Shown here in pieces: positions 1 through 47,916 of a stretch of DNA of 64,000 bases. The notes beneath the pieces are model-generated. The model searched no databases. It saw only the letters and a program-made list of their open reading frames with translations, and was not told the DNA's origin. The position numbers and the translations under genes were made by a program. The stretch's first letter is position 1, and every line of letters starts with the position of its first letter. Origin of the DNA: Frankiaceae bacterium (GTDB taxonomy: Bacteria > Actinomycetota > Actinomycetes > Frankiales > Frankiaceae); NCBI GenBank assembly GCA_036267695.1, contig DATAVO010000047.1:4364-68363 (forward strand). The letters run 5' to 3'.

Positions 1-1083
1 GGCGACGACGAGGAAGTAGGCCGGGAAACCCATCTGGAGGATGACCCCGACCTCGTAATCCACCTGCGCCTGCTGGGCCTCCGTAGCGCCACGGGGATAG
101 CGCTGGGCGACCCCGCGCGCGACCTCCTTGCGAAACCAGCTCTCCTCGGATTCGCCTTCCGGGCAAGGGAATTGCGGCAAAAGCTGCTTGGGTGCGAACG
201 AGGGCGGCTGGATCCGCTCGGCGATCACAAGCGTGTTGTCGCAGGCCTCAGGGAGCTCGGCGAAGGTCGCGCGCATCTCGGCCGGGGACTTCAGGTAGAA
301 CTCGGTGGCTTCGAACTTGAAACGAGTTGGATCGGCGAGGGTCGCGCCCGTCTGCACGCACAGCAGCACCTCGTGGGCCGTGTGGTCGGCCTGCTGGGTG
401 TAGTGCAGATCGTTGGTGGCGACGAGCGGGAGATCGAGCTCCTTCGCGATCTGGACGAGCTGGGGGAAGGTGCGCCGCTCGATGTCGATGCCGTGCTGCA
501 TCAGCTCGACGTAGAAATTGCCGCGGCCGAAGATCTCCGCGTACTCCCCCGCCGTCGCCTTCGCGAGCGCGTAATCGCCGCGCTCCAGCGCCTGGCTCAC
601 CTCGCCGCCCGGGCAGCCGGTCGTGCCGATGATCCCGCCGGCATAGCGCGAGAGCAGCTCGCGGTCCATCCGGGGCTTGTAGTAGTAGCCCTCCAGGCTC
701 GCCAGGCTGGAGAGCTTGATCAAATTGGCGTAACCGTCGGGGTCGGCCGCCCACAGCGTCATGTGGCTGTACTTGTCGGTCTTGGCATTGCCGCCGTCGG
801 GCAGCCGCTTGTCGAAGCGGGACCCGGGGGCGATGTAGGCCTCGGTGCCGATGATCGGCTTGATGCCGGCCTTGGCTGCCTTACCGGCGAAATCGAACGC
901 GCCGTAGAGGTTGCCGTGATCGGTCATCGCCAGAGCCGGCATGCCGAGCCGCTCGCATCCTTCGAACAGGTCGGTCAGCCGCGCCGCACCGTCGAGCATC
1001 GAGTACTCGGTGTGCACGTGGAGGTGGACGAACGAATCGTCCCGCGACGCTGATCCCCCAGCCGCGGGCCCCTCGCTCGTCAT
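1..1083 (-). CDS. dnaE: DNA polymerase III alpha subunit (DnaE1), N-terminal part; the gene continues past the window start
   Basis: Absent from the ORF track because it has no stop in the window. My translation from the reverse-strand ATG at 1083..1081 gives MTSEGPAAGGSASRDDSFVHLHVHTEYSMLDGAARLTDLFEGCERLGMPALAMTDHGNLYGAFDF, the PHP-domain N-terminus of replicative Pol III alpha. The 172..1053 + ORF is antisense to it. Confidence 0.9.
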   Translation of the reverse strand, partial: MTSEGPAAGGSASRDDSFVHLHVHTEYSMLDGAARLTDLFEGCERLGMPALAMTDHGNLYGAFDFAGKAAKAGIKPIIGTEAYIAPGSRFDKRLPDGGNAKTDKYSHMTLWAADPDGYANLIKLSSLASLEGYYYKPRMDRELLSRYAGGIIGTTGCPGGEVSQALERGDYALAKATAGEYAEIFGRGNFYVELMQHGIDIERRTFPQLVQIAKELDLPLVATNDLHYTQQADHTAHEVLLCVQTGATLADPTRFKFEATEFYLKSPAEMRATFAELPEACDNTLVIAERIQPPSFAPKQLLPQFPCPEGESEESWFRKEVARGVAQRYPRGATEAQQAQVDYEVGVILQMGFPAYFLVVA

Positions 1084-1149
1084 ACCGCAGACCGCCTTTC
1101 CGTCCCCGCTAGCCCCCGCAAACCCCTTCGATGCAAGGTTCAGGTTTAG

Positions 1150-2700
<1,551 letters not shown>

Positions 2701-8189: not shown

Positions 8190-8460
8190 CCAGCGCGGAA
8201 AGCGGCCCTGACGGGGACGAGTAGCGCCGGAAGCAGCCACGAGCGATCCGGGGATGGTGTGAGCCCGGGGCCGGCCCGGCGTGAAGATCACCCCTGAGCT
8301 GCCGGAAGAGGCGGGGATCCTCCCGCGGTAGAACCGGCCCACGTGAGTCAGTGAGTGAGTGGGCGCGTGCCGGTCGCGGCGCGTCAAGAAGGGTGGTACC
8401 GCGGGGCCGGCAAGAAGCGGCCTCGTCCCTTCGCCGGGAGTACCGACGAAGGAGCACCAC
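8190..8460 (+). promoter_or_regulatory. T-box leader (Ile specifier) upstream of ileS, probably SD-sequestering
   Basis: aagaaGGGTGGTACCGCG at 8386..8403 matches the T-box consensus AAnnnGGGUGGUACCGCG. GAAG-AUC-A (AUC at 8287..8289) is a candidate Ile specifier. CCTTCG (8428..8433) can pair with CGAAGG (8447..8452), which overlaps the GAAGGAG Shine-Dalgarno 6 nt before the ATG at 8461. The 5' boundary is approximate. Confidence 0.75.
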
Positions 8461-11595
<3,135 letters not shown>

Positions 11596-35254: not shown

Positions 35255-37665
35255 GCGGCACCGGAATCGGGCTGCGCGAGCCACCGCGGCCGAGCCCGCG
35301 CGCGCCGGCAGCGCCGCGCTGGTCGCCGCCCCCCGCGCCGGCCCAACCCCGACCCGATCTGCAGATCCCGATCCCCGTCCTGGCCGGTCTCGCGACCTTC
35401 TGCACGGCGCTGTGCCTGGGCAACCTCTTCGACGGCCTGCGCTGGTGGCTGGCACCGGTCACGGGCGCCATCATCGTCGCCGGGCTGGCCGGAGAACTGA
35501 CCCGACGCGTCCGCGCCCTCGTGGTCGTCATGCCGCTCGTCTATCTCGTGGCGGGCTGGCTCTACGTCATCCCGGTGGCGACTCACGGTTCGCCGTTCAG
35601 CTCCAAGATCAGCCTGGCCCCATGGGGCGCCACGTGGAGCGCGCTGCATTCGCTCGCCAGTTCTGGTTCCATCGACATCCGGGCGCTGAGCGTTCCGGTC
35701 CCCCAGCGTCCGGGATTCCTCTTCCTCACCGTCGCCGGTGTCTACCTGATCGCCGCTCTGGTCGACGCGATCGCCGTGGCCCTGCAACGCCCGGCCGCCG
35801 CGGGCCTGCCGCTTCTCGCGTTGCTCGCCGTCCCGGCAGCGGTCGTCGACCGGGGCGTCGGACTGCTGGCTTTCCTTGCCGCCTGCGCCTCCTACATCGC
35901 GCTGCTGCTCGCGTCCGGCCGAAGAAGGCTGATGAGCTGGGCCAAGCTGCCACCTGGCTCAGCGGCGGGTATCCGTCGTGTGACGGGATCCAACGGGCGC
36001 CGCATCGGCGCGGTGGCGGTGGTGACCGCGCTGTTCGTGGCTCTGCTCATCCCGCGCTACGGCGGCATCGCCCGCCAGCACCGCGGCGGCGACGGCTCGG
36101 GTTCGGCGACCGTCATCGAACCGGTCGTCACGCTCCAGCAGCAGTTGCACAGCAACGTCAACCAACCGCTGCTCACGGTGCATACCGCGACGCCGGAGTA
36201 CCTGCGCCTGACGGCGCTGGAGCACTTCGACGGCGTGACGTTCAGCCTCGGTTCGTTGACCGCCGGCGCCAACGCCAAGGTGTCGCGTGGGCTGCCGGCC
36301 GTGGCGCCCGGGCCGACCCAGCGCATACAAGCGACCGTAAACGTGCAGCCGGCGCTGCACCAGCGCTACCTCCCGGTGCCCTACCAGCCGACCAAGGTCG
36401 ACGTCCGGGGCGACTGGCGGCTGGCCAGCCGCAACTTCACGATCTTCTCGGCGCAGACCGACACCTCGAGCAAGCAATACACGGTGACCTCCCAGGTGGC
36501 CGATCCGACCCCGGAGTCGTTGCGCGCGGAGTCGGCGGGCGGATCGGTGCCCTCCGATGTGGCCCCGAGCCAGGAACTGCCGGCGGATCTGCCGGTAAAG
36601 GTGAACCAGCTCGCCGACCACCTGACGTCGGGTCTGCTGACGGAGTACGACCGGGCCGCGGCGATTCAGGCGTACCTGCGCAGCCCGCCGTTCCACTACG
36701 ACCTGAACGGCGCGCCGACTGGCTCGGACGCGCTGTCAGAGTTCCTGTTCGACTCCCACCGTGGTTACTGCGAGCAGTTCGCCGGCGCCATGGTCGTGCT
36801 GGCCCGGATCGCGGGAATCCCGGCGCGGGTGGCCGTGGGCTTCACACCGGGCACGCAACAGGCTGACGGCAGCTGGGTGATCACCAACCATGACGCCCAC
36901 TCCTGGCCCGAGCTGTGGTTCCCGCAGGCGGGGTGGGTGCGATTCGAACCCACTCCTCGCGACGCGAGCACGAAGCCGCCGGGCTACACCGTGCCGCAGC
37001 CCGGCAGCGCGCCGACGGCGACCCCGACCCCGAGCACATCGGCGAGCCAGTCCGCCAGCCCGACCCCCGGCGTCCTGAACCCCGACCACGGCACGCAGAG
37101 CCTGGCCCCGGTGGCGGGTAGCAGTGGGAGCGGCAAGGGCGGGTCTGGCGTCGTCATCGATTGGCTCATCGGCATCGCCGCGGCGATGGTGCTGCTGCTG
37201 ACACCGGCCCTCCTCCGCCGGCAGCGGCGCCGGCGCCGCCTGCACGCCCCCACGAGCGGGCCCGCCGAGCTGTGGGCTGAGATCCTGGACACCGCAGTCG
37301 ATCTCGGACTGCCTGCCGCGCCAAACCTTTCGCCCCGCCGCCTGGTCCAGTTCTGGTCACGCCTGCCAACGGGTGAGCGCACCATGCCCGACATCAGCCG
37401 GGCCACGATCATGGACATCGCCTACGCCCAGGAGCTCGACCGCTACGCGGGCGGAGCAACACTGCGACGCGACGCGGCGGCGAACCTCGCCGAAGCCCTG
37501 CAGTCCTTGGAACGCTCGTGTCCCGCCCAGGCACGCTGGCGGGCCAAGCTCGCACCGCAGTCGGTGCTGGCGGGCATCGTCCGGTGGCGCAGCCGGCTCA
37601 CCAGGCCGACCTGGCTGCCGCGGATCCCGAAGATCCGCCGTACGGCAGGCAGCGAGCAGGTCTGA
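35251..37665 (+). CDS. transglutaminase-domain polytopic membrane protein (TgpA-like)
   Basis: The ATG at 35251 overlaps the DUF58 stop (ATGA). There are multiple N-terminal TM segments. The transglutaminase core reads GYCEQFAGAMVVLARIAGIPARV...HDAHSWPELWF...VRFEPTP. Confidence 0.85.
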   Translation: MSGTGIGLREPPRPSPRAPAAPRWSPPPAPAQPRPDLQIPIPVLAGLATFCTALCLGNLFDGLRWWLAPVTGAIIVAGLAGELTRRVRALVVVMPLVYLVAGWLYVIPVATHGSPFSSKISLAPWGATWSALHSLASSGSIDIRALSVPVPQRPGFLFLTVAGVYLIAALVDAIAVALQRPAAAGLPLLALLAVPAAVVDRGVGLLAFLAACASYIALLLASGRRRLMSWAKLPPGSAAGIRRVTGSNGRRIGAVAVVTALFVALLIPRYGGIARQHRGGDGSGSATVIEPVVTLQQQLHSNVNQPLLTVHTATPEYLRLTALEHFDGVTFSLGSLTAGANAKVSRGLPAVAPGPTQRIQATVNVQPALHQRYLPVPYQPTKVDVRGDWRLASRNFTIFSAQTDTSSKQYTVTSQVADPTPESLRAESAGGSVPSDVAPSQELPADLPVKVNQLADHLTSGLLTEYDRAAAIQAYLRSPPFHYDLNGAPTGSDALSEFLFDSHRGYCEQFAGAMVVLARIAGIPARVAVGFTPGTQQADGSWVITNHDAHSWPELWFPQAGWVRFEPTPRDASTKPPGYTVPQPGSAPTATPTPSTSASQSASPTPGVLNPDHGTQSLAPVAGSSGSGKGGSGVVIDWLIGIAAAMVLLLTPALLRRQRRRRRLHAPTSGPAELWAEILDTAVDLGLPAAPNLSPRRLVQFWSRLPTGERTMPDISRATIMDIAYAQELDRYAGGATLRRDAAANLAEALQSLERSCPAQARWRAKLAPQSVLAGIVRWRSRLTRPTWLPRIPKIRRTAGSEQV

Positions 37666-37768
37666 GGCCGGGCGGCCCTTGCAGCTGGGGCCGCCGCCCT
37701 GCTACGGGCACTCAGGGGACGCGCCCGCCTCATTCTGAACGCGATTGCTTACGCGCTGCCGACCCGCT

Positions 37769-37856
37769 CGCCGGTTCAGCAGTTCGCCGGTTCGGCACTT
37801 CGCCGGTTCAGCAGTTCAGCAGTTCGCCGGTTCAGCAGTTCGCCGGTTCAGCAGTG
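37769..37856. repeat. about 5.5 tandem copies of a 16-nt unit CGCCGGTTCAGCAGTT in a convergent intergenic spacer
   Basis: Copies lie at 37769, 37785 (2 mismatches), 37801 (plus an extra 8-nt half unit at 37817..37824), 37825 and 37841 (1 mismatch). The unit length is not a multiple of 3. Confidence 0.85.
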
Positions 37857-37863
37857 CAGCGAG

Positions 37864-38268
37864 TCAGCGGTCGCGGTCTTCCCAGCGACGCTGCCAACGC
37901 TCCTGCGCCCGCTCGGAGACCGACCGGCGCGACCGCGGGGACCGCGAACGGCCGGAGCGCGCGTCAGGATCCGGACGACCGCCCAGGCGGCGCAGATCTC
38001 CCGAGCCGCGTAGCGCGGCGAGAAGCATGACAATGAATCCGACGAGTCCCAGCACGATGCTGACGGCACCAGCGCTTGAACTGATCACCACTGCGGCAAC
38101 GAGCACACCAAGGCCGACGATGAACAAGGCGGCGGAGCGCCAGAGGCGCCGAAGAGCGTAGGTGCGCGGGTTTATCGAACGAACAGTGCTGACCAACTTG
38201 GGGTCATCGGCGTAGAGCTCGCGCTCGATCTGCTCGAGCAGACGCTGCTCATGCTCTGAGAGCGGCAT
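37864..38268 (-). CDS. DUF3040-family membrane protein
   Basis: The ATG at 38268 gives MPLSEHEQRLLEQIERELYADDPKL, and GGGAGGAG lies upstream. Two TM segments and a basic tail follow. Confidence 0.8.
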   Translation of the reverse strand: MPLSEHEQRLLEQIERELYADDPKLVSTVRSINPRTYALRRLWRSAALFIVGLGVLVAAVVISSSAGAVSIVLGLVGFIVMLLAALRGSGDLRRLGGRPDPDARSGRSRSPRSRRSVSERAQERWQRRWEDRDR

Positions 38269-38495
38269 CCGCGCTCCTCCCACACCAACGTTTTCAGACC
38301 CCGAGAGGGGGTCTTCTTAGAATAGAACTTCGGCAGCTCAGACGATAGTCGCAAGCTTTGGCACTGCACCAACTTTCAGCAACGTCGGCAACTGACCTTA
38401 CGCACCCCCGTCCTTCGACCATCGCCGCAGGTTGCTCACTATTGCTAGCGGTTTTCCGGCCATCCTGCAGGACGATGATGGCCGCCTCAGCTGAG

Positions 38496-39716
38496 CTATG
38501 GCGGAGAGCGTCCCGGAGGCTCGAGCAACGACGCCGGACGCACCGATCCTGACCCGAACCGCGCGGAGGCCTGATCGACCGCGCGATCAGCCTCTCGCCA
38601 TCCCAGCTCGCGCTCCCCCAGCATCTGCTGGCGAGTGACCTTTGCCGAGGTGATGAGGCTTTCGGCGCGGACACCGACCAGCCGCAGGCGGGCGCGCTGC
38701 AGGCCCAGCTTGAGGAACAGTTCGCGGGCAACCTCGTAGATCTCCCGACCGGTGTCGGTGGCCTGCGGGAGGGTGCGCGAGCGCGTGATGGTGGTGAAGT
38801 CGGCGAATCGGACCTTCAGCGTCAGGGTGCGGGCCGCGTACTCCTGCTCGCGCAACCGGGCCGCCGTGCGCTCGGCCAGCCTCAGCACCTCGCGTAGGAC
38901 AACCTCGGGATCATCGACGTCACGCGCAAAAGTCTCTTCAGAACCGACGCTTTTGTCCGGTTCGGTCGCAATGACCCGGCGCTCGTCACGTCCCCACGCG
39001 AGCGCGGCCAGATGGGTACCGGTACCCGTGCCGAGCGCCCGCTGGAGGGTCTCGACGGGTATCTGGGCGATGTCGCCGACCGTGCGCAGCCCGAGCTGAT
39101 GCAGCGCCTCCGCCGTACGCTCCCCCACTCCCCACAGCGCTTCGACGGGCAGCGGATGCAGGAACGCGACGACCCCGTCAGCCGGGACGATGAGCAAACC
39201 GTCAGGTTTCCCGCGCGCTGAGGCCAGCTTGGCCACGAACTTGCTGGGAGCGACGCCCACCGTGCAGGTGAGCTGCTGCTCGTCCCAGATCCGCGCGCGG
39301 ATCCACTCGGCGATCTGGGCGGGACGCCCGAGCCGGCGCAAGCAGCCGCGCACGTCGAGGAACGCCTCATCGAGCGAGAGCGGCTCCACGAGCGGGGTGA
39401 CCGAACGAAAGATCTCCATGATTCCGGCGGACGCTTCGCTGTAGCGGCCGAATTTTGGAGAAATGACCACCGCCTGCGGGCAGAGCCGACGGGCCCGCAT
39501 CATCGGCATGGCGCTGCGCACGCCGTACTCGCGCGCCTCATACGTCGCGGAGAGCACTACCCCGCGGCTGCCACCGCCGCCCACGATGACCGGTTGGCCG
39601 TGCAACTCTGGCCGCGATCGCAGCTCGACGGATGCATAGAACGCATCCATGTCGACGTGCAGGATCGGGCACTGCTCGTCGGCGGGGCGGACCGGCTCGT
39701 CAGAAAAGCGGCTCAC
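38496..39716 (-). CDS. dinB: DNA polymerase IV (Y-family, catalytic residues intact)
   Basis: 406 aa. Contains ILHVDMDAFYASVE and SATYEAREYGVRSAMP, plus little-finger region features. Confidence 0.9.
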   Translation of the reverse strand: MSRFSDEPVRPADEQCPILHVDMDAFYASVELRSRPELHGQPVIVGGGGSRGVVLSATYEAREYGVRSAMPMMRARRLCPQAVVISPKFGRYSEASAGIMEIFRSVTPLVEPLSLDEAFLDVRGCLRRLGRPAQIAEWIRARIWDEQQLTCTVGVAPSKFVAKLASARGKPDGLLIVPADGVVAFLHPLPVEALWGVGERTAEALHQLGLRTVGDIAQIPVETLQRALGTGTGTHLAALAWGRDERRVIATEPDKSVGSEETFARDVDDPEVVLREVLRLAERTAARLREQEYAARTLTLKVRFADFTTITRSRTLPQATDTGREIYEVARELFLKLGLQRARLRLVGVRAESLITSAKVTRQQMLGERELGWREADRAVDQASARFGSGSVRPASLLEPPGRSPP

Positions 39717-39728
39717 GGCGCCGGCCGA

Positions 39729-40517
39729 TCAGCGATCTGCCTCTGGCCCCTGACCGGCGCGTGCCAGCAAGTGAAGCCGGGTGGCCATCGCGTGGTAGGC
39801 CGGCAGCCGCGAGACTTTCTCTTCCAGCCGCGCCAGGACCTCGCGGCCATGAGGCTCGGTATCGAGGACGGCACCGGGCACCAGATCCGAGAACACCCGA
39901 TCGCCGTGGACTTCGAGCACCGACATGCCTGCCGCTTCGACGAACGCCACGAGCTCACCCAGATCGAAGCGCCGGATCGAGCGGTCGGTGGTGCCGGTCT
40001 TCCCGCCGTCAAGCACGACCTCAGCGGCGTCGAGGCGCCCGGCGAGGACTCGCCCCAGCACCGCTGCCGACCGATTGGCGGCCAGCAAGCTGAGCAGACC
40101 GCCCGGACGAAGCACCGCTGCCACTGCCGCCAGGCCGAGCCGGGGATCATCGGCGATCTCGAGAACGTCGTGGCACAGCAGGAGATCGGCCTGCTCCGCT
40201 CCAACGGCTTCGGCCAACGTGTCGAGATCGCCCTGACGCCCGCTGACCCGATCACCCACGCCGGCCTCGGTGGCCCGGCGCTCCAGCGACGCCAGCGAAT
40301 CAGGACTCGGGTCCACCACGATGACCCGATGACCCAGCTCGGCGAGCGGGACCGCAAAACCGCCGCTGCCGCCACCGGCATCGACGACCGCCAGCTCCCG
40401 GCCACGTCGCTCGGACAGCTCGGAGAGCGCCCGGCGCAGGTCTTCCCAGACGACGCTGCTGCGCGCCGCCGGCCAGGAGCCGGACTGGGTCGACTGGCTG
40501 AGAGGCACGAGGGGCAC
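39729..40517 (-). CDS. class I SAM-dependent methyltransferase
   Basis: The SAM motif is VVDAGGGSGGFAVPLAELGHRVIVVDPS. I chose the start at GTG 40517, with GGAAAGGA upstream. The ORF-track start at 40709 overlaps the dnaE2 3' end and encodes Arg/Ser-rich sequence. Confidence 0.7.
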   Translation of the reverse strand: MPLVPLSQSTQSGSWPAARSSVVWEDLRRALSELSERRGRELAVVDAGGGSGGFAVPLAELGHRVIVVDPSPDSLASLERRATEAGVGDRVSGRQGDLDTLAEAVGAEQADLLLCHDVLEIADDPRLGLAAVAAVLRPGGLLSLLAANRSAAVLGRVLAGRLDAAEVVLDGGKTGTTDRSIRRFDLGELVAFVEAAGMSVLEVHGDRVFSDLVPGAVLDTEPHGREVLARLEEKVSRLPAYHAMATRLHLLARAGQGPEADR

Positions 40518-40650
40518 GCGGTCCTTTCCGGATGCCGAAGGACGCTCCCGGCACCTGACCGGAAGGGTAATCGTCCCGCGGGCCGACGGCTGCAGGGATT
40601 TCCGGGACCTCCAGGACTGCCAGCACTCACCCGACTTCCAGGACTGCTGC

Positions 40651-43600
40651 TCATCCGCCGGAGCTCCCCGGGCTGGAGTGCCACAACCGGCGCGGGGCAC
40701 TGCGCGCATCTCCGCCGGAGGGCTTGATGTCGGCGTACGGCGAGAGCCGGAACCCGGTGGCGTACTGCTGCGCCCTGCCTCCCGTGAGCCCAGCGCCTCC
40801 GGTGGGCGGATTCACCATGACCGGCCGGCTCGAGCGGCTGGCGGCGGCGCCCTGCACCGCCAACTCGCTGACTCCCGCGGGAGCGGCCATCAGCTGCTCG
40901 ACCGCCGGAATTCCCCCCAGCTCCCACGCGTCTCGCATCGCGGGCAGCTCCCAGCACCCGGTGGCCCGCAGCGACACCCCGCGCGGGCCGGTGCGGCGTA
41001 CGAATCCGCGGATGACCAGCAACCACGAATGGAAGACGGTCGACGCGTAACCAGCCTGGGCATCTTCGAAAAACGTGGCATCGAGCGGCCCGGTCGCGTC
41101 ATCGAGGGTCACGAAGACGACTCGACGGCCGGATCGGACCGGCGGGGTCTGGGTGGCCACCTTCACCCCGGCGATGAGCACTTCCTGCTTGCTGCGACAA
41201 CCCATGAGGTCGCGAGACCGGGTGATGCCCATCGCCGCTATGAACGGCTCGTAGAAATCCACCACGTGACGGGTGACATCAAGGCCGAGCACCTCGAGCT
41301 CCGCCCGCAGCTGCTCCGCGCCGGTGAGCTCCGGGAGGCCGGAGGCGGTGATGGCCGAAGGGTCGTCACCGAGCGGAAGCGCGAGCTGAACCTGATCCGC
41401 CTCACTGCCCGGCCCGCGCGGGGCTTGCGACTGTCGCGCAGCCTGCTCCACCACGCCCCTACCTCCGACGCTCCCGACTCCCCCGACTCCCCCGACTCCC
41501 CCGGCGCTCCCGACTCCCCCGGCATCTGAGGTGAGGGGCTCGGCCCGGCGGGAGCGTCGCGCCTGCCGTCCGGAACTGCGTGCCACCGCCCGGCTCCACC
41601 GGTCGAGCTCGGTCACCTGCAAAAGCAGATCCCGGCGGGTGATCCGGCCGCGCCGGCGCACCGGCGCCGCCAGCCCGATGCCGTAAAGCGAATCGAATCC
41701 CCCTGCCAATACGAGCCTTTCGACGATCGGACGGGAGGCACGCGCCCGGTGCCAGAAGTCCGACAGAGACCCGTAGGGACGTCCGGCGACGATGCTCTCG
41801 ACCTCTGCCGAACTGATTCCCTTCACCTCCGCCAGCGCCATCCGGATCCCGTAACTGCGCGCATCGGGAAGCCGGGGATCCAGCGGCGGATAGCGGGACG
41901 GGGCATCGAGCACGGCAGGGGGCGGTTCGCTGAACATGCCGATGCGCTCCATGCGATAGACGCTGTCGGACTGGTTGACATCGAGACCGAGGATGGCGAT
42001 GCCGAACTGGCGGGCGTCATCGAGGATCAACCGCTTGGGATACATCCCGGGATCGTGGGTGAGCACGCCGGCCAGAAAGGCAGCGGTGTGATGGGCTTTC
42101 AGCCACGCCGACTGATACGTGGGTAACGCGAACGCCGCGGCATGGGCCTTGCAGAATCCGAAGGATCCGAAGGCTTTGAGCACTTCCCAGACCCGCTCGA
42201 CGGTCGCCAGGTCATAGCCGGCTCGCAGCGCCGCCGGTACGAACGCGGCCCGGACCTCCTGCTGAAGGTCGGGATCTCCCAGCGCGCGGCGGGCCTCGTC
42301 AGCCTCGGCCAGCGAGATCTTGGTCATCTGCGCCACGATTTGCAGCACCTGCTCGTGGAAGACGACAACCCCGCCGGTGTCAGCCAGATACGGCTCCAGA
42401 TCGGGATGCAGATAGCGCGCCTCGCTCCAACCCTGGCGGGCTTCCAGGAAGGGGGTCACCATGTCGCTCTTCACCGGGCCGGGGCGAAAAAGCGAGATGT
42501 CGATGATGACGTCCTCGAAGGTCTCCGGGGCGAATTTGCCCACCAGCTCACGCTGGCCCGGCGACTCGATCTGAAAACAGCCGAGGGTGCGGGTGGACTG
42601 CACGAGCGCGAAGGTCGCCGGATCGGCGCGGTCGATCTCGTCGATGTCGACCTCGGCCCCATCGACCCGCTGCACTTCCGCAAGGGCATGGGCGATGGCG
42701 GACTGCATGCGGATGCCCAGCAGATCGAGCTTGAGCAGACCCAGATCTTCGACGTCATCCTTGTCGAACTGGCTCATCGGGAAGCCCAGATAGCTCGCCT
42801 CGACGGGGGTGCGCTCCAGCAGGGTCGCATCCGATAGCAGCACCCCGCAGGGATGCAACGCGATGTGGCGCGGGAGCCCGTCGAGCCGCTCCACGAGGCG
42901 CAGCAGCAGATCCAGCCGCTCGGCGGACAACCCGCTGGAGCGCAACTCAGGAAGCTCGCGCATCGCGGCACGCACCTGGCTGGCGCGAATGTGCGGGAAT
43001 GCCTTGGCCACCGCATCGATCTCGCCGGGAGGCAACCCGAGCGCCCCGCCGACATCACGGATCGCATGGCGGGCCCGGTAGGTATCCATCATGGCGACGC
43101 AGGCACACCGCTCTCCGCCATAGCGGGCAAGAACTTTTTCGTAGACCTCGGTGCGCCGAGCGGACTCGACATCGATGTCCACATCGGGCAGCTGATGACG
43201 AAGCGGCGAAAGGAACCGCTCCATCAGAAGGCCGTACCGCAGCGGATCGACGTCGGAAACGCCCGTGAGATAGGTGACCAGGCTGCCGGCGCCCGACCCG
43301 CGAGCCGCGCAACGCACTCCCATTTCCCGGATCAGGTCGACCACATCGGCCACGGTGAGGAAGTAGCTCGGATACCCCAGCGACCGGATGATGTTCAACT
43401 CGGCATCGAGCCGCTCGCTGACTTCCCGTGATGCCGGCATGCCGCGGCGGACGAGCCCCGCCTCGCAACGGGCACGCAGTACGAGATCGGCATCAGCACC
43501 CGCAATGCCGCCGCCGGACACTTCCAGCTCCGGAAAGTGGATCTCACCGATTCCGAGATCGGCTTTGGGATCCAGCACACAACGTTCAGCGATCTGCCGG

Positions 43601-44508
43601 GATCGGATGAGCAGGCTCCTGCCACCGTCGGTGAAACCGGCGGCACGCGCGACTTCCTCGGCGATCCCGCCCATCTCCTTGCCGGACTTCAGATAGCCCT
43701 CGGCATTGACCCGGCCGACGTGGCGCGCATCGAGAGCGACCAGCAATCGCGACGCATCGAGAACATCAGCCACTGGAGCATCGCTGCGATCGGCATAACG
43801 CACCTCATTGGTGAGCACCACCGGTAGCCCGGATGCTGCACCGAACCCGGCCCACCTGCCCGCCCGCGCCAGCTCGCTCCGGCCACGGTGATGAACGACC
43901 TCGAGCTGCAACTCGCCCGGCTCTGGCAACGCCGCTCGCCAACGCGCGAGATGAGCGGCAGCGAGCTCCTCGCGGCGCAAGGCCAGCGCCTGGGCAGCCT
44001 CGGACTTCGGCCCCATCATTGCGATGAGCGCACCGCCCGCCGCACGAGCGGCCTCGGCATGCTCAGCGATCAGTTCAAGGGTGGTGATCGGGGTGCCGCG
44101 CTCCCCCGCCAGATGCGTCGCCGTCACCAGCCTGCACAGGGCTCCCCAGCCCGGCCGCCCGACAGCAAGCATGGTGACCCGCGGCAAACCCGGATCGATG
44201 AAGGTGCCGCCGCGGGCCGGCCCGGTGGAGGGCGGAGCAGATGACGGCCGACGGCCTTTCGGCGACGCGTGATCACCCGAAAGCGACACCGGAGCAACAG
44301 CGAGATCGGTACCGAGCACCGGCCGGATGCCCTCACGCTGGCAGGCCTTCGCGAAGCGAACAGCCCCATAGACCCCATCCCGATCGGTCAGCGCAAGAGC
44401 ATCCATCCCGTGCTCTGCAGCCCGGGCGGCAAGCAGATGAGGATGTGAGGCGCCGTGGCGCAGCGAATAACCGGACGCCACATGGAGATGTACGAAGTAC
44501 TCGGACAT
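40651..44508 (-). CDS. dnaE2: DnaE2-type (error-prone) DNA polymerase III alpha homologue, 1285 aa
   Basis: PHP motif is HLHVASGYSLRHGAS...ALALTDRDGVYGAVRFAKAC. Polymerase motifs are LPDVDIDVESARR, GCFQIESPGQRELVGK and FGFCKAHAAAFALPTYQSAWLK. It is a second alpha-subunit gene, distinct from the dnaE1 fragment at 1..1083. Confidence 0.85.
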   Translation of the reverse strand: MSEYFVHLHVASGYSLRHGASHPHLLAARAAEHGMDALALTDRDGVYGAVRFAKACQREGIRPVLGTDLAVAPVSLSGDHASPKGRRPSSAPPSTGPARGGTFIDPGLPRVTMLAVGRPGWGALCRLVTATHLAGERGTPITTLELIAEHAEAARAAGGALIAMMGPKSEAAQALALRREELAAAHLARWRAALPEPGELQLEVVHHRGRSELARAGRWAGFGAASGLPVVLTNEVRYADRSDAPVADVLDASRLLVALDARHVGRVNAEGYLKSGKEMGGIAEEVARAAGFTDGGRSLLIRSRQIAERCVLDPKADLGIGEIHFPELEVSGGGIAGADADLVLRARCEAGLVRRGMPASREVSERLDAELNIIRSLGYPSYFLTVADVVDLIREMGVRCAARGSGAGSLVTYLTGVSDVDPLRYGLLMERFLSPLRHQLPDVDIDVESARRTEVYEKVLARYGGERCACVAMMDTYRARHAIRDVGGALGLPPGEIDAVAKAFPHIRASQVRAAMRELPELRSSGLSAERLDLLLRLVERLDGLPRHIALHPCGVLLSDATLLERTPVEASYLGFPMSQFDKDDVEDLGLLKLDLLGIRMQSAIAHALAEVQRVDGAEVDIDEIDRADPATFALVQSTRTLGCFQIESPGQRELVGKFAPETFEDVIIDISLFRPGPVKSDMVTPFLEARQGWSEARYLHPDLEPYLADTGGVVVFHEQVLQIVAQMTKISLAEADEARRALGDPDLQQEVRAAFVPAALRAGYDLATVERVWEVLKAFGSFGFCKAHAAAFALPTYQSAWLKAHHTAAFLAGVLTHDPGMYPKRLILDDARQFGIAILGLDVNQSDSVYRMERIGMFSEPPPAVLDAPSRYPPLDPRLPDARSYGIRMALAEVKGISSAEVESIVAGRPYGSLSDFWHRARASRPIVERLVLAGGFDSLYGIGLAAPVRRRGRITRRDLLLQVTELDRWSRAVARSSGRQARRSRRAEPLTSDAGGVGSAGGVGGVGGVGSVGGRGVVEQAARQSQAPRGPGSEADQVQLALPLGDDPSAITASGLPELTGAEQLRAELEVLGLDVTRHVVDFYEPFIAAMGITRSRDLMGCRSKQEVLIAGVKVATQTPPVRSGRRVVFVTLDDATGPLDATFFEDAQAGYASTVFHSWLLVIRGFVRRTGPRGVSLRATGCWELPAMRDAWELGGIPAVEQLMAAPAGVSELAVQGAAASRSSRPVMVNPPTGGAGLTGGRAQQYATGFRLSPYADIKPSGGDARSAPRRLWHSSPGSSGG

Positions 44509-44534
44509 GCAACCCGCGCTTTCGAGCTCTAGTA

Positions 44535-45011
44535 CTAGGCGGACAGCGAAAGCGACGGCTGCTGCACCAGGCCCAGCAGAGCAAGCACCGCAAGCAGGAA
44601 GTGCTCGGCATCCCGGATCAGATCATCGGCTTCACGCTGGCTGACGACCGGGCGCCCGGCTTCGGCAGCGGCACGCTTTCCGGCTCCGGCCGCAAAGAAG
44701 GCAGCCCACTCACCGAGCTCGGGAGCGACATCCTGCAGCAGCCGCCAGGCACTGACCGGGCGGCCGCGCCGGCTCTGCGGACGGGTGCGGGCAGCCAGCA
44801 CTGCGGCTGCAGCACGCAACGCGGCCAGATGAGCGAGCGCGTAACGCTCCCCGCTGACGCGGGCTCCTTCCGCATCGGCCAGGCCCTGCCGGGACGCGGA
44901 GAGCAACCCGCCGACGGCGCGCGGCAATGCCTTGGCCCGGGCTTGAACCTGCGCACGGGCCATGCTTTTCGCGGGATGGCTCTTCGCGGGATGCGAATCA
45001 GAGACGGTCAT
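44535..45011 (-). CDS. small HEPN-like protein (resembles the SAV_6107 family)
   Basis: 158 aa. Contains ERYALAHLAALRAAAAVLAARTRP...SAWRLLQDVAPELGEWAAFFAAGAGKRAAAEAG...READDLIRDAEHFL. The family was recognised from memory, not searched. Confidence 0.6.
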   Translation of the reverse strand: MTVSDSHPAKSHPAKSMARAQVQARAKALPRAVGGLLSASRQGLADAEGARVSGERYALAHLAALRAAAAVLAARTRPQSRRGRPVSAWRLLQDVAPELGEWAAFFAAGAGKRAAAEAGRPVVSQREADDLIRDAEHFLLAVLALLGLVQQPSLSLSA

Positions 45012-45454
45012 CAGTCATGTACCTCCACCAGCTGCCAGCTACCGAGTGACCAGAGAAAACAAAGGTCATAGATCCCGGGGGACGCGGATCGGCCTGCTGC
45101 CGCTTCCACCCGCCAGAACTCCTGCTCGCCGTCATCGATGGAGGCCGGACCCATCGACGCGCCCACATCCGGCGCCGGCTCACCCCACGCCCGCTGAGCC
45201 CACTTGGGTGATGCCGGGATCGGCGCCAGCACCAGGTCGGAACCTGTGGACCTTGCGGATCTTGTGGATTTCGTGGGCTGGGCATCGCTGCCGGTGCCCA
45301 ACGCCATCGCCGAAACAGACGCCCACCACTGACCGGACTCGAACCAGTGCTCCAGCACGTCTTTGACGACGTAGAGGCGCGAGCGCCAGAGGAACTGTGC
45401 CGGCGCATCATCGCGCCGGCGCACATCGATCGGCTCGGCATGACGCCTACCCAT
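45011..45454 (-). CDS. small conserved protein (resembles DUF6504)
   Basis: 147 aa. Contains PAQFLWRSRLYVVKDVLEHWFESGQWW...EFWRVEAAAGR...GIYDLCFLWSLGSWQLVEV. GAGGGAGG lies 5 nt before the ATG. There is a TGATG overlap with the HEPN-like gene. The family assignment is from memory. Confidence 0.6.
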   Translation of the reverse strand: MGRRHAEPIDVRRRDDAPAQFLWRSRLYVVKDVLEHWFESGQWWASVSAMALGTGSDAQPTKSTRSARSTGSDLVLAPIPASPKWAQRAWGEPAPDVGASMGPASIDDGEQEFWRVEAAAGRSASPGIYDLCFLWSLGSWQLVEVHD

Positions 45455-45613
45455 GAACGCCTCCCTCCCCGAGACACCGGCTGGCGATTAACCCGCTGGG
45501 CTCGCCGGGGGAAGGCGACGATGCCGGCAGGCAACGCCGCTTCCCCACGACGCCGCCTGCCGACAGCTCCTGCTCGCCCGTACGCTGGATGGGAACGCTG
45601 CGAGCTGGTGTAC

Positions 45614-45627
45614 CGAACATACGTTCG
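45614..45627. promoter_or_regulatory. LexA (SOS/Cheo) box CGAACATACGTTCG
   Basis: This is a perfect GAAC-N4-GTTC palindrome (context cCGAACATACGTTCGa) about 160 nt upstream of the DUF6504-like start. On the coding (minus) strand the box contains TATGTT, a TAnnnT -10-like hexamer. Confidence 0.75.
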
Positions 45628-45938
45628 ATGACGCGGTGGGTCAAGCCTTTTACGGCCGGAACAGTCGATCAGCCGAACTCGCGGTTGCGCCACTGGCAGC
45701 GGCCGCCAGCAAATCCGGTCGCCCTGGCGACCGCTGCTGCCGGCAGTGGTCGCGTACGCGTGTGGGAGCGCTCGAGCGTGCCGTGACGCTTACGCGCCGC
45801 TCGGAGGCCCCTGCGTTTCGGCCGGCGCCACTAACTGGCGGCCATATATGACGGCGAACTGGTGGCGCCCCGCCCGCGTAGCCGCGGTCACCAGTCAGGT
45901 CAGCCGGCGCGGTCCGCCGGCGCGGTCCGCCGGGGCGG

Positions 45939-46265
45939 TCAGCCGGCGCGGTCCGCCGGCGCACCGCTCCCGTCGGATCGCAGCACGAAGCGCCGGTTGC
46001 AGGAGTGACACCACCAGCCGCCGCGCTCCCCTACGGGCTCGAGGTCTTCCTCGCCGCAGTAAGGGCAGTAGAACGGCACCGCGCGCTCGCCGCCGGGGCC
46101 GGCTGAGCCGCCGGGGCCGGCTGAGCCGCCGGGGCCGGCTGAGCCACCGGGACCGGCTGAGCCACCCGAGCCGGCTGAGCCACCCGAGCCGGCTGAGCCA
46201 CCCGAGCCGGCTGAGCCACCCGCACCACCCGCACCAACGGAACCCGGGTCAGCAGGCGTACTCAC
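45939..46265 (-). CDS. small zinc-ribbon protein with a Gly/Ser/Ala/Pro repeat N-terminus (possibly CysX-like)
   Basis: The GTG at 46265 lies 13 nt after the sirA stop. The C-terminus FYCPYCGEEDLEPVGERGGWWCHSCNRRF is a CxxC...CxxC ribbon. The ORF-track start at 46454 lies inside sirA. Confidence 0.65.
   Translation of the reverse strand: MSTPADPGSVGAGGAGGSAGSGGSAGSGGSAGSGGSAGPGGSAGPGGSAGPGGSAGPGGERAVPFYCPYCGEEDLEPVGERGGWWCHSCNRRFVLRSDGSGAPADRAG
46092..46217. repeat. 7 tandem copies of an 18-bp unit, in frame within the zinc-ribbon gene
   Basis: Three copies of gccggggccggctgagcc, then accgggaccggctgagcc, then three copies of acccgagccggctgagcc. On the minus strand these encode (GSAGPG/GSAGSG) repeats. 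Confidence 0.85.
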
Positions 46266-46278
46266 GGGCGACCCCGGC

Positions 46279-47916
46279 TCAGACCAGGACCGACTCGTCG
46301 GCCCGGCGCACCCACGACGCGAAGCTCTCGCCCTCGGTGCGATCGCCCTGGAAGGTGAGCAGGATTCGCTCGACGAAATCCGGTAGCTCGGCGGCCGTGA
46401 CCTTGAGCCCGCGCACCTTGCGACCGAGCGCCGCCTCGACCCCCAGCGATCCACCGAGATGGATCTGGAAGCCTTCCTCGCCGCCGATGAGCGAACCCTT
46501 CAACCCGATGTCGGCCACCTGGAAGCGGGCACACGCATTGGGGCAGCCATTGACATTGATCCCGATGGGCTCGTCGAACTCGGGCATGCGCCGCTCGAGC
46601 TCGTCGATGAGTTCGCTCGCGAGCGCCTTGGTCTCGACGATCGCCAGCTTGCAGAATTCCAGCCCGGTGCACGCCATCGTCGAGCGCCGGAAGGACGAGG
46701 GGAACACCTGGAGATCGAGCGCCGCCAGAGCAGCCACGAGCCCGTCGACGTCGGTGACGCCCAGGATGATCATCTTCTGCTCGGTCGTGGTGCGCACCTG
46801 ACCGGAGCCGAAAGTGTCGGACAGTTCGGCAATCTGGCGCAGCAGCGAACCGGACACCCGCCCGACCCGCGGGGCGAACCCGACCGCCGACGTGCCGTCG
46901 CGCAAGGCGGTCACACCGACGTGGTCACGACGCTTCGCACGCGGCGTTTCCGGAGCCGGGCCGTCAGGCAGCGGGTAGCCGAGGTACTCCTTCTCCAGCA
47001 CCTCCCGGAAACGCTCGGGACCCCAGTCGGCGACCAGGAACTTCAACCGCGCCCGGGTACGCGAGCGCCGGTAGCCGTAATCGCGGAAGATCGACGTGAC
47101 CCCGGCCCAGACGTCGGGCAGCTCCTCCTCGGTGACGAAAACCCCAAGCCGCACAGCGAGTTTCGGGTTGGTCGACAGCCCCCCGCCGACCCACAAGTCA
47201 TACCCGGCGGCGCCGTCAGGACCATTGACGCCGACGAACGAGATGTCGTTGATCTCGTGGATCGTGCAGTGATCGGGGCAGCCCGAGATCGCGGTCTTGA
47301 ACTTGCGCGGCAGGTTGGAGAACTCCGGCGACCCGATGTGGCGCCGGGACACCTCGGCGATGGCCGACGTGCCGTCGATGATCTCGTTTGCTTCGTCACC
47401 GGCGAGCGGGCAGCCCAGGATGACGCGCGGGGTGTCGCCGCAGGCCTCGGTGGTGGACAGCCCGGTCGCTTCCAGCCGCTGCCAGATCGCCGGCACGTCT
47501 TCGATGCGAATCCAGTGCAGCTGGATGTTCTGGCGATCCGTGACGTCTGCGGTATCTCGGCCGTACTCGGTGCTGACGTCAGCGATGGCCCGCAGCTGTT
47601 CAGCGGTCAGCCGGCCGCCGTCGATACGTACCCGGAGCATGAAGAACTTGTCGTCGAGCTCCTCCGGCTCCAGCGATCCGGTGAGGCCCCCGCCGATCCC
47701 CGGACGGCGCTGCGTGTAAAGCCCCCACCAACGCATCCGGCCGCGCAGATCGCTGGGGTCGATCGCATCGAATCCCCGATGGGCGTAGACGTTTTCGATG
47801 CGCTGACGGACGTTGAGTCCGTCGTCATCCTTCTTGAAACGCTCGTTGGCGTTAAGCGGCTCACGGTGACCCAGAGCCCACTGGCCCTGACCGGTGCTGC
47901 GCTGCGGCGCGGGCAT
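46279..47916 (-). CDS. sirA: ferredoxin-dependent sulfite reductase (NirA/SirA type)
   Basis: The ATG at 47916 (MPAPQRSTGQGQWALGHREPLNANERFKKDDDGL) has GGGAGGA 9 nt upstream. The siroheme/4Fe-4S motifs are CTGLEFCKLA and NVNGCPNACAR. The ORF-track start at 48264 adds an implausible leader. Confidence 0.88.
   Translation of the reverse strand: MPAPQRSTGQGQWALGHREPLNANERFKKDDDGLNVRQRIENVYAHRGFDAIDPSDLRGRMRWWGLYTQRRPGIGGGLTGSLEPEELDDKFFMLRVRIDGGRLTAEQLRAIADVSTEYGRDTADVTDRQNIQLHWIRIEDVPAIWQRLEATGLSTTEACGDTPRVILGCPLAGDEANEIIDGTSAIAEVSRRHIGSPEFSNLPRKFKTAISGCPDHCTIHEINDISFVGVNGPDGAAGYDLWVGGGLSTNPKLAVRLGVFVTEEELPDVWAGVTSIFRDYGYRRSRTRARLKFLVADWGPERFREVLEKEYLGYPLPDGPAPETPRAKRRDHVGVTALRDGTSAVGFAPRVGRVSGSLLRQIAELSDTFGSGQVRTTTEQKMIILGVTDVDGLVAALAALDLQVFPSSFRRSTMACTGLEFCKLAIVETKALASELIDELERRMPEFDEPIGINVNGCPNACARFQVADIGLKGSLIGGEEGFQIHLGGSLGVEAALGRKVRGLKVTAAELPDFVERILLTFQGDRTEGESFASWVRRADESVLV

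Follow-up and report, generated by a model that had tools for sequence, protein, structure and literature searches.

A 64-kb window of a Frankiaceae metagenome-assembled genome (MAG), which is the whole stretch of DNA analysed here and the frame for all coordinates unless stated otherwise, carries five consecutive minus-strand genes encoding a DUF6504 protein, a HEPN protein, a DnaE2-type polymerase III alpha subunit, a methyltransferase and the Y-family polymerase DinB. We hold with good confidence that this locus is a LexA-repressed operon for translesion synthesis and mutagenesis of the DnaE2B-PolY-ImuBC-RecA type, in which ImuB is split into two proteins. The mutasome of this type is putative, having been put forward on computational grounds together with AlphaFold 3 models (PMC6511836, NAR 2019; PMC12926913, NAR 2026); its reported occurrences are confined to Actinobacteria whose genomes are described as lacking imuA and imuB, and a "good tetramer" was modelled for Tessaracoccus lapidicaptus and Nocardioides euryhalodurans (PMC12926913). 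The initial annotation of this DNA had proposed a variant SOS mutasome in which small proteins of unknown function could act as adaptors or regulators. What stands of this proposal is its core, a variant mutasome under probable LexA control that would operate without ImuA' and full-length ImuB and with a small protein as adaptor. Its other parts fall away: the DUF6504 protein is no longer an unknown, the PHP domain of the polymerase is degenerate and, given that the architecture had already been published as a prediction (PMC6511836, PMC12926913), its novelty was overstated. The features of the locus are:

45616..45644, minus strand: sigma-70-like promoter (-35 TTGACC at 45644-45639, 17-nucleotide (nt) spacer, -10 TATGTT at 45621-45616)
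45613..45628: LexA (SOS) box CCGAACATACGTTCGA, minus-strand reading TCGAACGTATGTTCGG, from motif match and conservation
45498..45580, minus strand: structured leader RNA, from covariation and covariance model R1
45460..45470, minus strand: extended Shine-Dalgarno GGGGAGGGAGG of the first gene, complementary to the leader CCUUCCCC loop
45011..45454, minus strand: DUF6504 protein (imuB-C), 147 amino acids (aa), PF20114; predicted beta-barrel with a disordered insert at residues 42-106
44535..45011, minus strand: HEPN_SAV_6107 protein, 158 aa, PF18726; predicted non-catalytic helical bundle
40651..44508, minus strand: dnaE2, predicted DnaE2B-type error-prone Pol III alpha, 1285 aa, with PHP, DNA_pol3_alpha, finger, HHH_6 and OB domains
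39729..40508, minus strand: CmoM/SmtA-like class I S-adenosylmethionine methyltransferase, 259 aa, from Pfam methyltransferase domains and a metagenome gene call
38496..39716, minus strand: dinB, Y-family polymerase, 406 aa, NF003015 at 413.6 versus a cutoff of 367
1..1188, minus strand: second DnaE, N-terminal part only, cut off by the window edge; tblastn identity 28% to DnaE2B residues 5-387

The five open reading frames (ORFs) lie where the initial annotation had placed them. The HEPN gene (45011-44535) starts in a TGATG overlap, sharing one base with the DUF6504 stop codon, and is separated by 26 nt from the 1285-aa polymerase gene (44508-40651). The methyltransferase gene follows dnaE2 after 142 nt if its start is taken from the metagenome gene call (40508), and dinB (39716-38496) follows after a further 12 nt.

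The identity of the first gene product is central to our interpretation. Its annotation as DUF6504-like is borne out by a profile check, in which PF20114 (DUF6504) gave 52.8 bits at a cutoff of 24.2. Standalone ImuB-C proteins, which correspond by homology to the C-terminal domain of ImuB, have been described from operons that also contain genes for Y-family polymerases, DnaE2 or both (PMC3765255, PMC6511836), and the beta-barrel fold of ImuB-C has been published as new (PMC12926913). Using published ImuB-C sequences from the supplement of PMC12926913, we found that a profile of the window's DUF6504 family scores 86.9 bits on VEP41449 and 77.1 bits on QFG68257 and also matches two Chloroflexi ImuB-C proteins. 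Pfam DUF6504 itself scores 51.6 bits on VEP41449, and PF20114 matches residues 426-500 of the 503-aa Agrobacterium ImuB just under the cutoff (E 1.3e-4). An AlphaFold2 model of the window protein has a six-stranded beta structure, with which a structure search of the PDB gave no match; a PDB sequence search with the DUF6504 profile gave chance-level matches only and no mutasome structure. Comparison by hhalign of a shallow DUF6504 alignment (Neff 1.7) with two full-length ImuB proteins was uninformative (probability <1%), and the link to ImuB-C was therefore made through the published ImuB-C sequences, Pfam and a deeper profile. In a search of 1.8 billion representatives the best 150 matches were short standalone proteins only, by which ImuB is neither shown nor excluded. 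Judged by the profile matches, the DUF6504 protein is the C-terminal domain of ImuB in standalone form. The initial annotation's statement that no ImuA'- or ImuB-like ORF accompanies the operon is thus only half right: by tblastn neither ImuA', for which two proteins scoring 184 and 114 bits on NF058630 served as queries, nor a full-length ImuB was found in the 64-kb window, where the sole Y-family ORF is the apparently active DinB, and the first gene itself encodes the ImuB C-terminal domain. The disordered insert of ImuB-C (window 45137-45336, residues 42-106) contains a nearly invariant SPKWAQRAWGEPAPDVGA, which looks like a short linear interaction motif; ImuB-C of T. lapidicaptus is without this stretch.

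The DnaE2 polymerase has intact polymerase motifs, as had been stated, with the aspartates of PDVDIDVE and KLDLLG present. Its PHP domain, likewise stated to be intact, is not: in an alignment with the second DnaE of the window, just the HxH pair is kept out of nine metal ligands and the other seven are substituted. The second DnaE, which the initial annotation had already located at the opposite end of the window as dnaE1, keeps all nine ligands, the alignment showing HLHVHTEYSMLDG and MTDHG, and with these ligands intact it can be presumed to be the replicative dnaE1. On the NCBIfam error-prone model NF004225 the window DnaE2 scores 646 bits, below the cutoff of 939; for comparison, DnaE2B proteins of Streptomyces and Nonomuraea score 626 and 634 bits, respectively, and two DnaE2A proteins encoded behind ImuA'-ImuB score 1190 and 1470 bits. 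The window enzyme is 51% identical to the T. lapidicaptus DnaE2B over its first 400 residues and 47% identical to a Streptomyces DnaE2B; the corresponding values are ~30% for DnaE2A and 28% for the DnaE1 of the window. These scores and identities, rather than a phylogeny, suggest that the enzyme belongs to the DnaE2B group and not to DnaE2A.

DinB was correctly described as having an intact catalytic motif: the sequence contains both DMDAFYASVE and SLDEAF, its score exceeds the NCBIfam Pol IV cutoff and, as far as motifs can tell, the protein is catalytically competent. Its C-terminal tail contains a clamp-binding-like QQMLGE and a RecA N-terminal (RecA-NT)-like GWREADRAVDQASARFGSGSVRPASLL, and tail motifs of the forms QL.LGE and GWREAE.AVD.A..RFG.G.VRPA.L recur in most related loci. 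We take QL.LGE to be the counterpart of the E. coli Pol IV clamp-binding motif QLVLGL, and by eye GWREAE.AVD.A..RFG.G.VRPA.L resembles the RecA N-terminus and the tail of the T. lapidicaptus PolY VEP41451. Given that the DUF6504 protein is ImuB-C, the system would be one of split ImuB, i.e. ImuB-C together with an active PolY that carries the RecA-NT motif; the recA gene lies outside the window.

The site CCGAACATACGTTCGA is the only one in the 64 kb with at most one mismatch to TCGAAC-N4-GTTCGA. It carries one mismatch (45613-45628) and fits the operator requirement tCGAAC-N4-GNNCGa, a LexA motif defined in Streptomyces venezuelae by chromatin immunoprecipitation sequencing and surface plasmon resonance (PMC9380542). 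TTGACC-17-TATGTT is the only promoter-like site across 37800-46300, the chance expectation being 0.8, and its -10 hexamer TATGTT sits within the LexA box. In 80 of 82 loci such a box is found 40-270 nt 5' of the DUF6504 gene, the background rate elsewhere in the same loci being 0.0046 per 400 nt; the LexA box with an included TAnnnT hexamer, pointed out in the initial annotation, is real. We infer that LexA represses the operon and that the five genes are co-transcribed. Just 5' of the LexA box most loci outside the window clade have TGTCGG(TG)-N8-TAnnnT (L059 8728, L082 329, L096 7443), which looks like the mycobacterial RecA-independent (PafBC-type) promoter motif; in the window clade TTGACC-17-TATGTT stands in its place.

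The arrangement is widely conserved. Screening one genome per species with the DUF6504 alignment turned up a relative in at least 480 species, and the same gene order is present in 80 related actinobacterial species. The survey of co-occurrence that the initial annotation had called for was made on the 80 best loci, the denominators being loci whose contig reaches far enough: DUF6504 is followed by HEPN in 71/71, by DnaE in 59/59, by DinB in 47/47, by DUF3040 in 47/47 and by the methyltransferase in 44/47. These loci were drawn from Frankiales and Mycobacteriales MAGs, Acidothermaceae B102 and Nocardioides guangzhouensis, and the block adjoins DUF3040-TgpA-DUF58-MoxR, upstream of mraZ. A plasmid search with DUF6504 had a Nonomuraea chromosome filed as a plasmid as its sole match. 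In this replicon (Nonomuraea gerenzanensis NZ_LT559118.1, 11.85 Mb, evidently the chromosome) DUF6504 is directly followed by DnaE2B (L083 5735-9639); the locus has a weaker LexA-like box, GAGAACATATGTTCGA, and is without a HEPN, methyltransferase or DinB gene.

Comparison with known systems places the operon closest to those of T. lapidicaptus (VEP41449-41451) and N. euryhalodurans, with which it has in common a standalone ImuB-C, a DnaE2B of ~1280 aa, an active PolY with a RecA-NT tail and, as far as the 64-kb window shows, the absence of ImuA; the T. lapidicaptus ImuB-C, DnaE2B and PolY genes appear contiguous, judged from consecutive accession numbers only. To the system of PMC12926913 the window adds (i) HEPN between imuB-C and dnaE2, (ii) a CmoM-like methyltransferase between dnaE2 and dinB, and (iii) the leader RNA. 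With the mycobacterial ImuA'-ImuB-DnaE2 mutasome (Rv3395c, Rv3394c, Rv3370c) the window shares damage-inducible LexA-type regulation (predicted here), a DnaE2 without proofreading, an ImuB-C predicted to hold the DnaE2 PHP domain and a Y-family partner with clamp and RecA-NT motifs, but it differs in having no ImuA' within the 64 kb, in the splitting of ImuB into ImuB-C and an active PolY, and in a DnaE that scores with the B group (646 versus 1190-1470 bits on NF004225). The Streptomyces dnaE2-dinB2 pair (DnaE2B-iPolY-RecA; SCO1739-SCO1738) likewise consists of a DnaE2B (47% identity) followed by a Y-family gene behind SOS boxes; in contrast to the window, its PolY is catalytically dead, it has no ImuB-C, HEPN or methyltransferase gene and its genes are joined by an ATGA overlap. 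The pairs in this genus are induced by damage, in S. venezuelae 30-fold and 14-fold by mitomycin C (dnaE2-dinP; PMC9380542) and in S. coelicolor ~6-fold by ultraviolet light (UV) (dnaE2-dinB2; PMC3273824). Finally, the damage-inducible lexA-imuB-C-polY operon of Geobacter sulfurreducens, a single transcription unit, also couples a standalone ImuB-C to an active PolY (PMC6511836), but has no DnaE2, includes lexA and is proteobacterial.

The second gene adds a component to this picture. The protein had been annotated as HEPN-like of the SAV_6107 type, and a profile check agrees (PF18726, 120 bits). Its AlphaFold2 model (predicted local distance difference test score, pLDDT, 83.8) is a helical bundle, and the best PDB matches by Foldseek are the HEPN proteins 2hsb (probability 1.00, template-modelling score 0.72), 1wol and 4nqf, with weak E-values of 0.02-0.5. 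The R-x4-6-H catalytic motif was not found in the protein, and a 30-sequence alignment has no conserved His after R126 or R133. The SAV_6107 (HEPN-M) family has been described as restricted to actinobacteria and as being without this motif, with no gene context given (Anantharaman et al. 2013, PMC3710099). The window protein is a member of that family, and the context that is new here consists of LexA boxes and DnaE2 cassettes of both types. In GCA_000966285.1 (KQ031391.1; L088 7886-16597), from the Frankia/Pseudofrankia group, the HEPN gene comes first, 115 nt behind a perfect LexA box, in a cassette that continues with ImuA' (NF058630, 184 bits), an ImuB-like protein, DnaE2A (1470 bits), a methyltransferase and DinB and that is without a DUF6504 gene. 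Frankia sp. Cpl3 (L090 7925-10856) has a perfect LexA box followed by HEPN, then by what remains of the DnaE C-terminus, a 153-aa OB fold, and then by DinB, and in Frankia casuarinae CcI3 (CP000249.1; L094 7961-10347) a perfect LexA box precedes HEPN-methyltransferase-DUF3040, DnaE2 and DinB having been lost. Given that a perfect LexA box is kept where polymerases are lost, we regard HEPN_SAV_6107 as a predicted SOS gene by itself, and its link to the two types of DnaE2 cassette is strong but has exceptions. The gene is absent from the only DUF6504-DnaE2B locus analysed outside the window clade, that in Nonomuraea; neither it nor the methyltransferase gene was found at Streptomyces plasmid DnaE2B-iPolY pairs, and a plasmid search with the HEPN protein gave no match. 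PADLOC returned no defence-system match for the DUF6504 or the HEPN protein.

The disordered C-terminal tail of the HEPN protein contains a conserved Q-x-x-L, and Q..[LMF] is present in the last 30 residues of 177 of 193 homologs; the tail resembles a beta-clamp-binding motif. In the window (44535-44576) it reads QQPSLSLSA, many homologs end in ...QLLLASG, and the Q is nearly invariant. A full-text literature search found no paper naming both "HEPN" and "DnaE2", and HEPN and the methyltransferase are without mention in PMC6511836, in PMC12926913 and in the searched supplements of the latter; the linkage of HEPN to the mutasome cassette appears to be unreported.

The leader of the transcript is the other unexpected component. 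About 155 nt separate the promoter from the first start codon, and a 19-locus alignment of this stretch shows invariant GUGGGGAAGC and CCUUCCCC in covarying flanks. The former is the apical loop of a long hairpin of ~19 bp (loop at 45548-45539) and the latter the loop of a short hairpin (CUUCCCC, 45514-45508). Covariation was assessed in an alignment of 71 sequences (A3) with slid alignments and 500 shuffles as controls: 89.3% of cells are paired versus 42-53% in the slid controls, 226 cells are changed on both sides versus 21-55, and the observed values were reached by none of the 500 shuffles. The covariance model R1 scores 66.5 bits at 45498-45580 on the minus strand, its sole match in the window, and Rfam 15 gave no family match with E up to 1 on either strand of 37500-46500. 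In the minimum free energy fold CCUUCCCC is paired with the extended Shine-Dalgarno GGGGAGGGAGG. Over 70 loci, the energy of the duplex with the anti-Shine-Dalgarno averages -18.5 kcal/mol for the first-gene initiation region versus -12.2 to -13.8 for dnaE, the methyltransferase gene and dinB. GGGGAAG of the apical loop and the CUUCCCC loop are mutually complementary, which would make a loop-loop contact or a switch possible; the two loops hardly vary at all, and covariation therefore cannot test this contact.

An exact-pattern scan of metagenomes for the leader gave at least 120 stretches. Among the matches listed, DUF6504 lies downstream in 79 of the 111 with room for it (median 52 nt) and a LexA box upstream in 79 of 108 with room, and most of the ~30 matches without a downstream DUF6504 fail the covariance model and are probably due to chance. 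One stretch (L203 659-749) scores 64.7 bits on the leader model and has no DUF6504 homolog detected in the 650 nt downstream. The model has no match in the Nocardioides-type loci, the ImuA'-ImuB-type locus or the Frankia loci. In one genome the motif occurs in full a second time (72.3 bits), between the HEPN gene and dnaE2 (L027 10106-10191), and in two metagenome contigs (L109 4819-4913, L212 2748-2842) the motif directly precedes the HEPN gene, with DUF6504 ~1.1 kb further upstream. An upstream peptide in the leader is ruled out by the spacing of the invariant motifs, which differs by non-multiples of three (22 vs 32 nt), and by the covarying flanking stems; a role of the GGGGAAG/CTTCCCC pair as a DNA operator is unlikely with a spacing of 23 to 42 nt. 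Like HEPN, the leader RNA is without mention in PMC12926913 and its searched supplements. It appears to be unreported, and we suggest a regulatory role for it.

Combining these data with published work, we propose the following model. In uninduced cells LexA bound to TCGAACGTATGTTCGG would cover the -10 hexamer and block transcription. After damage, RecA-stimulated LexA cleavage would allow synthesis of one transcript for imuB-C, HEPN, dnaE2, the methyltransferase and dinB. The ImuB-C beta-barrel would then bind the degenerate PHP domain of DnaE2B, as in models of ImuA'-ImuB-DnaE2, and the active DinB-type PolY would supply the beta-clamp motif (QL.LGE-like) and the RecA-NT motif. Given the RecA-NT motif in PolY, we propose that cellular RecA stands in for ImuA'. 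The resulting complex would load the proofreading-deficient DnaE2 and the Y-family polymerase at stalled forks. These assembly steps are modelled on the published structures predicted for related complexes and on known clamp and RecA N-terminal motifs.

For the two additional components we can offer only a tentative proposal. HEPN_SAV_6107 may be a LexA-controlled accessory subunit or regulator common to ImuA'-ImuB-DnaE2A and ImuB-C-DnaE2B mutasomes, perhaps docking by its Q-x-x-L tail, e.g. to the beta clamp; and in the window clade the new leader RNA may gate the operon post-transcriptionally at translation of the first gene, with the CCUUCCCC loop toggling between the Shine-Dalgarno and the GGGGAAG apical loop. 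That the HEPN protein is a mutasome adaptor is a hypothesis to be set beside its persistence without polymerases and its absence from the Nonomuraea locus.

A serious contender, which we rate only somewhat short of an even bet, is that HEPN and the methyltransferase are resident genes upstream of the dcw cluster among which the polymerase genes became inserted, and that they are co-located, and perhaps co-transcribed, with the mutasome genes without having a role in the mutasome. The order HEPN-methyltransferase-DUF3040-...-mraZ without DnaE2 or DinB in F. casuarinae would fit such a history, as would the HEPN gene beside an OB-fold remnant and DinB in Frankia sp. Cpl3, the direct succession of DUF6504 and DnaE2B with no HEPN gene in Nonomuraea, the consecutive accession numbers of T. 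lapidicaptus ImuB-C, DnaE2B and PolY, the Streptomyces plasmid DnaE2B-iPolY pairs without either gene, and the likeness of the methyltransferase to the tRNA methyltransferase CmoM. It accounts less readily for a HEPN gene wedged between imuB-C and dnaE2 by a one-base overlap and a 26-nt gap in 71/71 loci, for HEPN as the first gene behind a perfect LexA box in a canonical imuA'-imuB-dnaE2 cassette, and for the retention of a perfect LexA box by HEPN where the polymerases are lost. A different question is raised by the S. coelicolor DnaE2B, deletion of which left killing and mutagenesis by UV unchanged, whereas the dinB genes did have an effect (PMC3273824). The window DnaE might accordingly be a damage-induced backup or gap-filling polymerase without a mutagenic role, leaving lesion bypass to DinB; we regard this as unlikely in view of the lost PHP proofreading ligands, the tight coupling of dnaE2 to ImuB-C, which is the DnaE2-binding module of ImuB, and the joint recurrence of DnaE2 and ImuB-C in related loci.

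A canonical imuA'-imuB pair elsewhere in the genome could also serve this DnaE2 and make the two small ORFs dispensable. The dnaE2 gene of M. tuberculosis is unlinked to imuA'-imuB, and our inspection covered 64 kb of the MAG. We nevertheless judge such an arrangement improbable: ImuB-C is encoded close upstream of dnaE2, the window DnaE scores as DnaE2B and not as DnaE2A, and the genomes in which DnaE2B-type enzymes have been reported are all without imuA/imuB (PMC12926913). Least likely of all, to the point that we give it hardly any weight, is a toxin-antitoxin or defence module made of DUF6504 and HEPN upstream of the polymerase genes. RNase toxins that come with a small partner gene are numerous among HEPN proteins (PMC3710099), but the window protein is without the R-x4-6-H motif, its gene was on no plasmid in the plasmid search, neither protein has a PADLOC match, DUF6504 corresponds to ImuB-C and not to a nucleotidyltransferase antitoxin, and the core-chromosome synteny is stable.

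Several points nevertheless weigh against the split-ImuB operon that we favor. The absence of the S. coelicolor deletion phenotype means that "mutasome" may overstate the role of DnaE2B. The complex of this system type is known only from AlphaFold models of homologs, the placement of the window enzyme in the DnaE2B group comes from scores and identities, the search for imuA' and imuB had the 64-kb window as its scope, with the rest of the MAG outside it, and there could be an internal promoter in the 142-nt gap ahead of the methyltransferase gene.

The closest solved structures to the methyltransferase are those of E. coli CmoM (8joz and 4htf; E 3e-26, nearly full length). We suggest that the protein may be a neighbour rather than a partner of the mutasome; that a CmoM-like methyltransferase travels with the block appears to be unreported. 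Third-position GC is 0.74-0.79 in the first four genes of the operon (39729-45454), versus 0.82 in dinB and 0.82-0.91 in neighbouring genes. Horizontal transfer as the source of these low values is not supported in view of the conserved chromosomal synteny. Upstream of the operon, a small minus-strand ORF (45900-46200) encodes a zinc-ribbon-like CPYCG...CHSCNRRF motif and is preceded by head-to-tail GGCTCAGCCGG(C/T)CC(C/G)GG repeats and followed by GGCGGACCGCGCCGGC repeats. A long ORF at 8359-11595 looks, by eye only, like an isoleucyl-tRNA synthetase.

How DnaE2 may work without ImuA' and ImuB has been predicted only recently, and the locus described here represents a chromosomal and well-conserved example of the predicted split-ImuB system. 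The operon is thus a well-conserved form of a recently predicted system, to which the HEPN partner and the leader RNA are new parts. Given that HEPN is found behind a LexA box in both types of mutasome, the published lists of components may be incomplete. Similarly, the covarying leader RNA suggests that expression of mutagenic polymerases is checked at the level of translation as well as by LexA. Both leads are testable in culturable relatives such as Nocardioides and Acidothermaceae B102 (genome AP028633).

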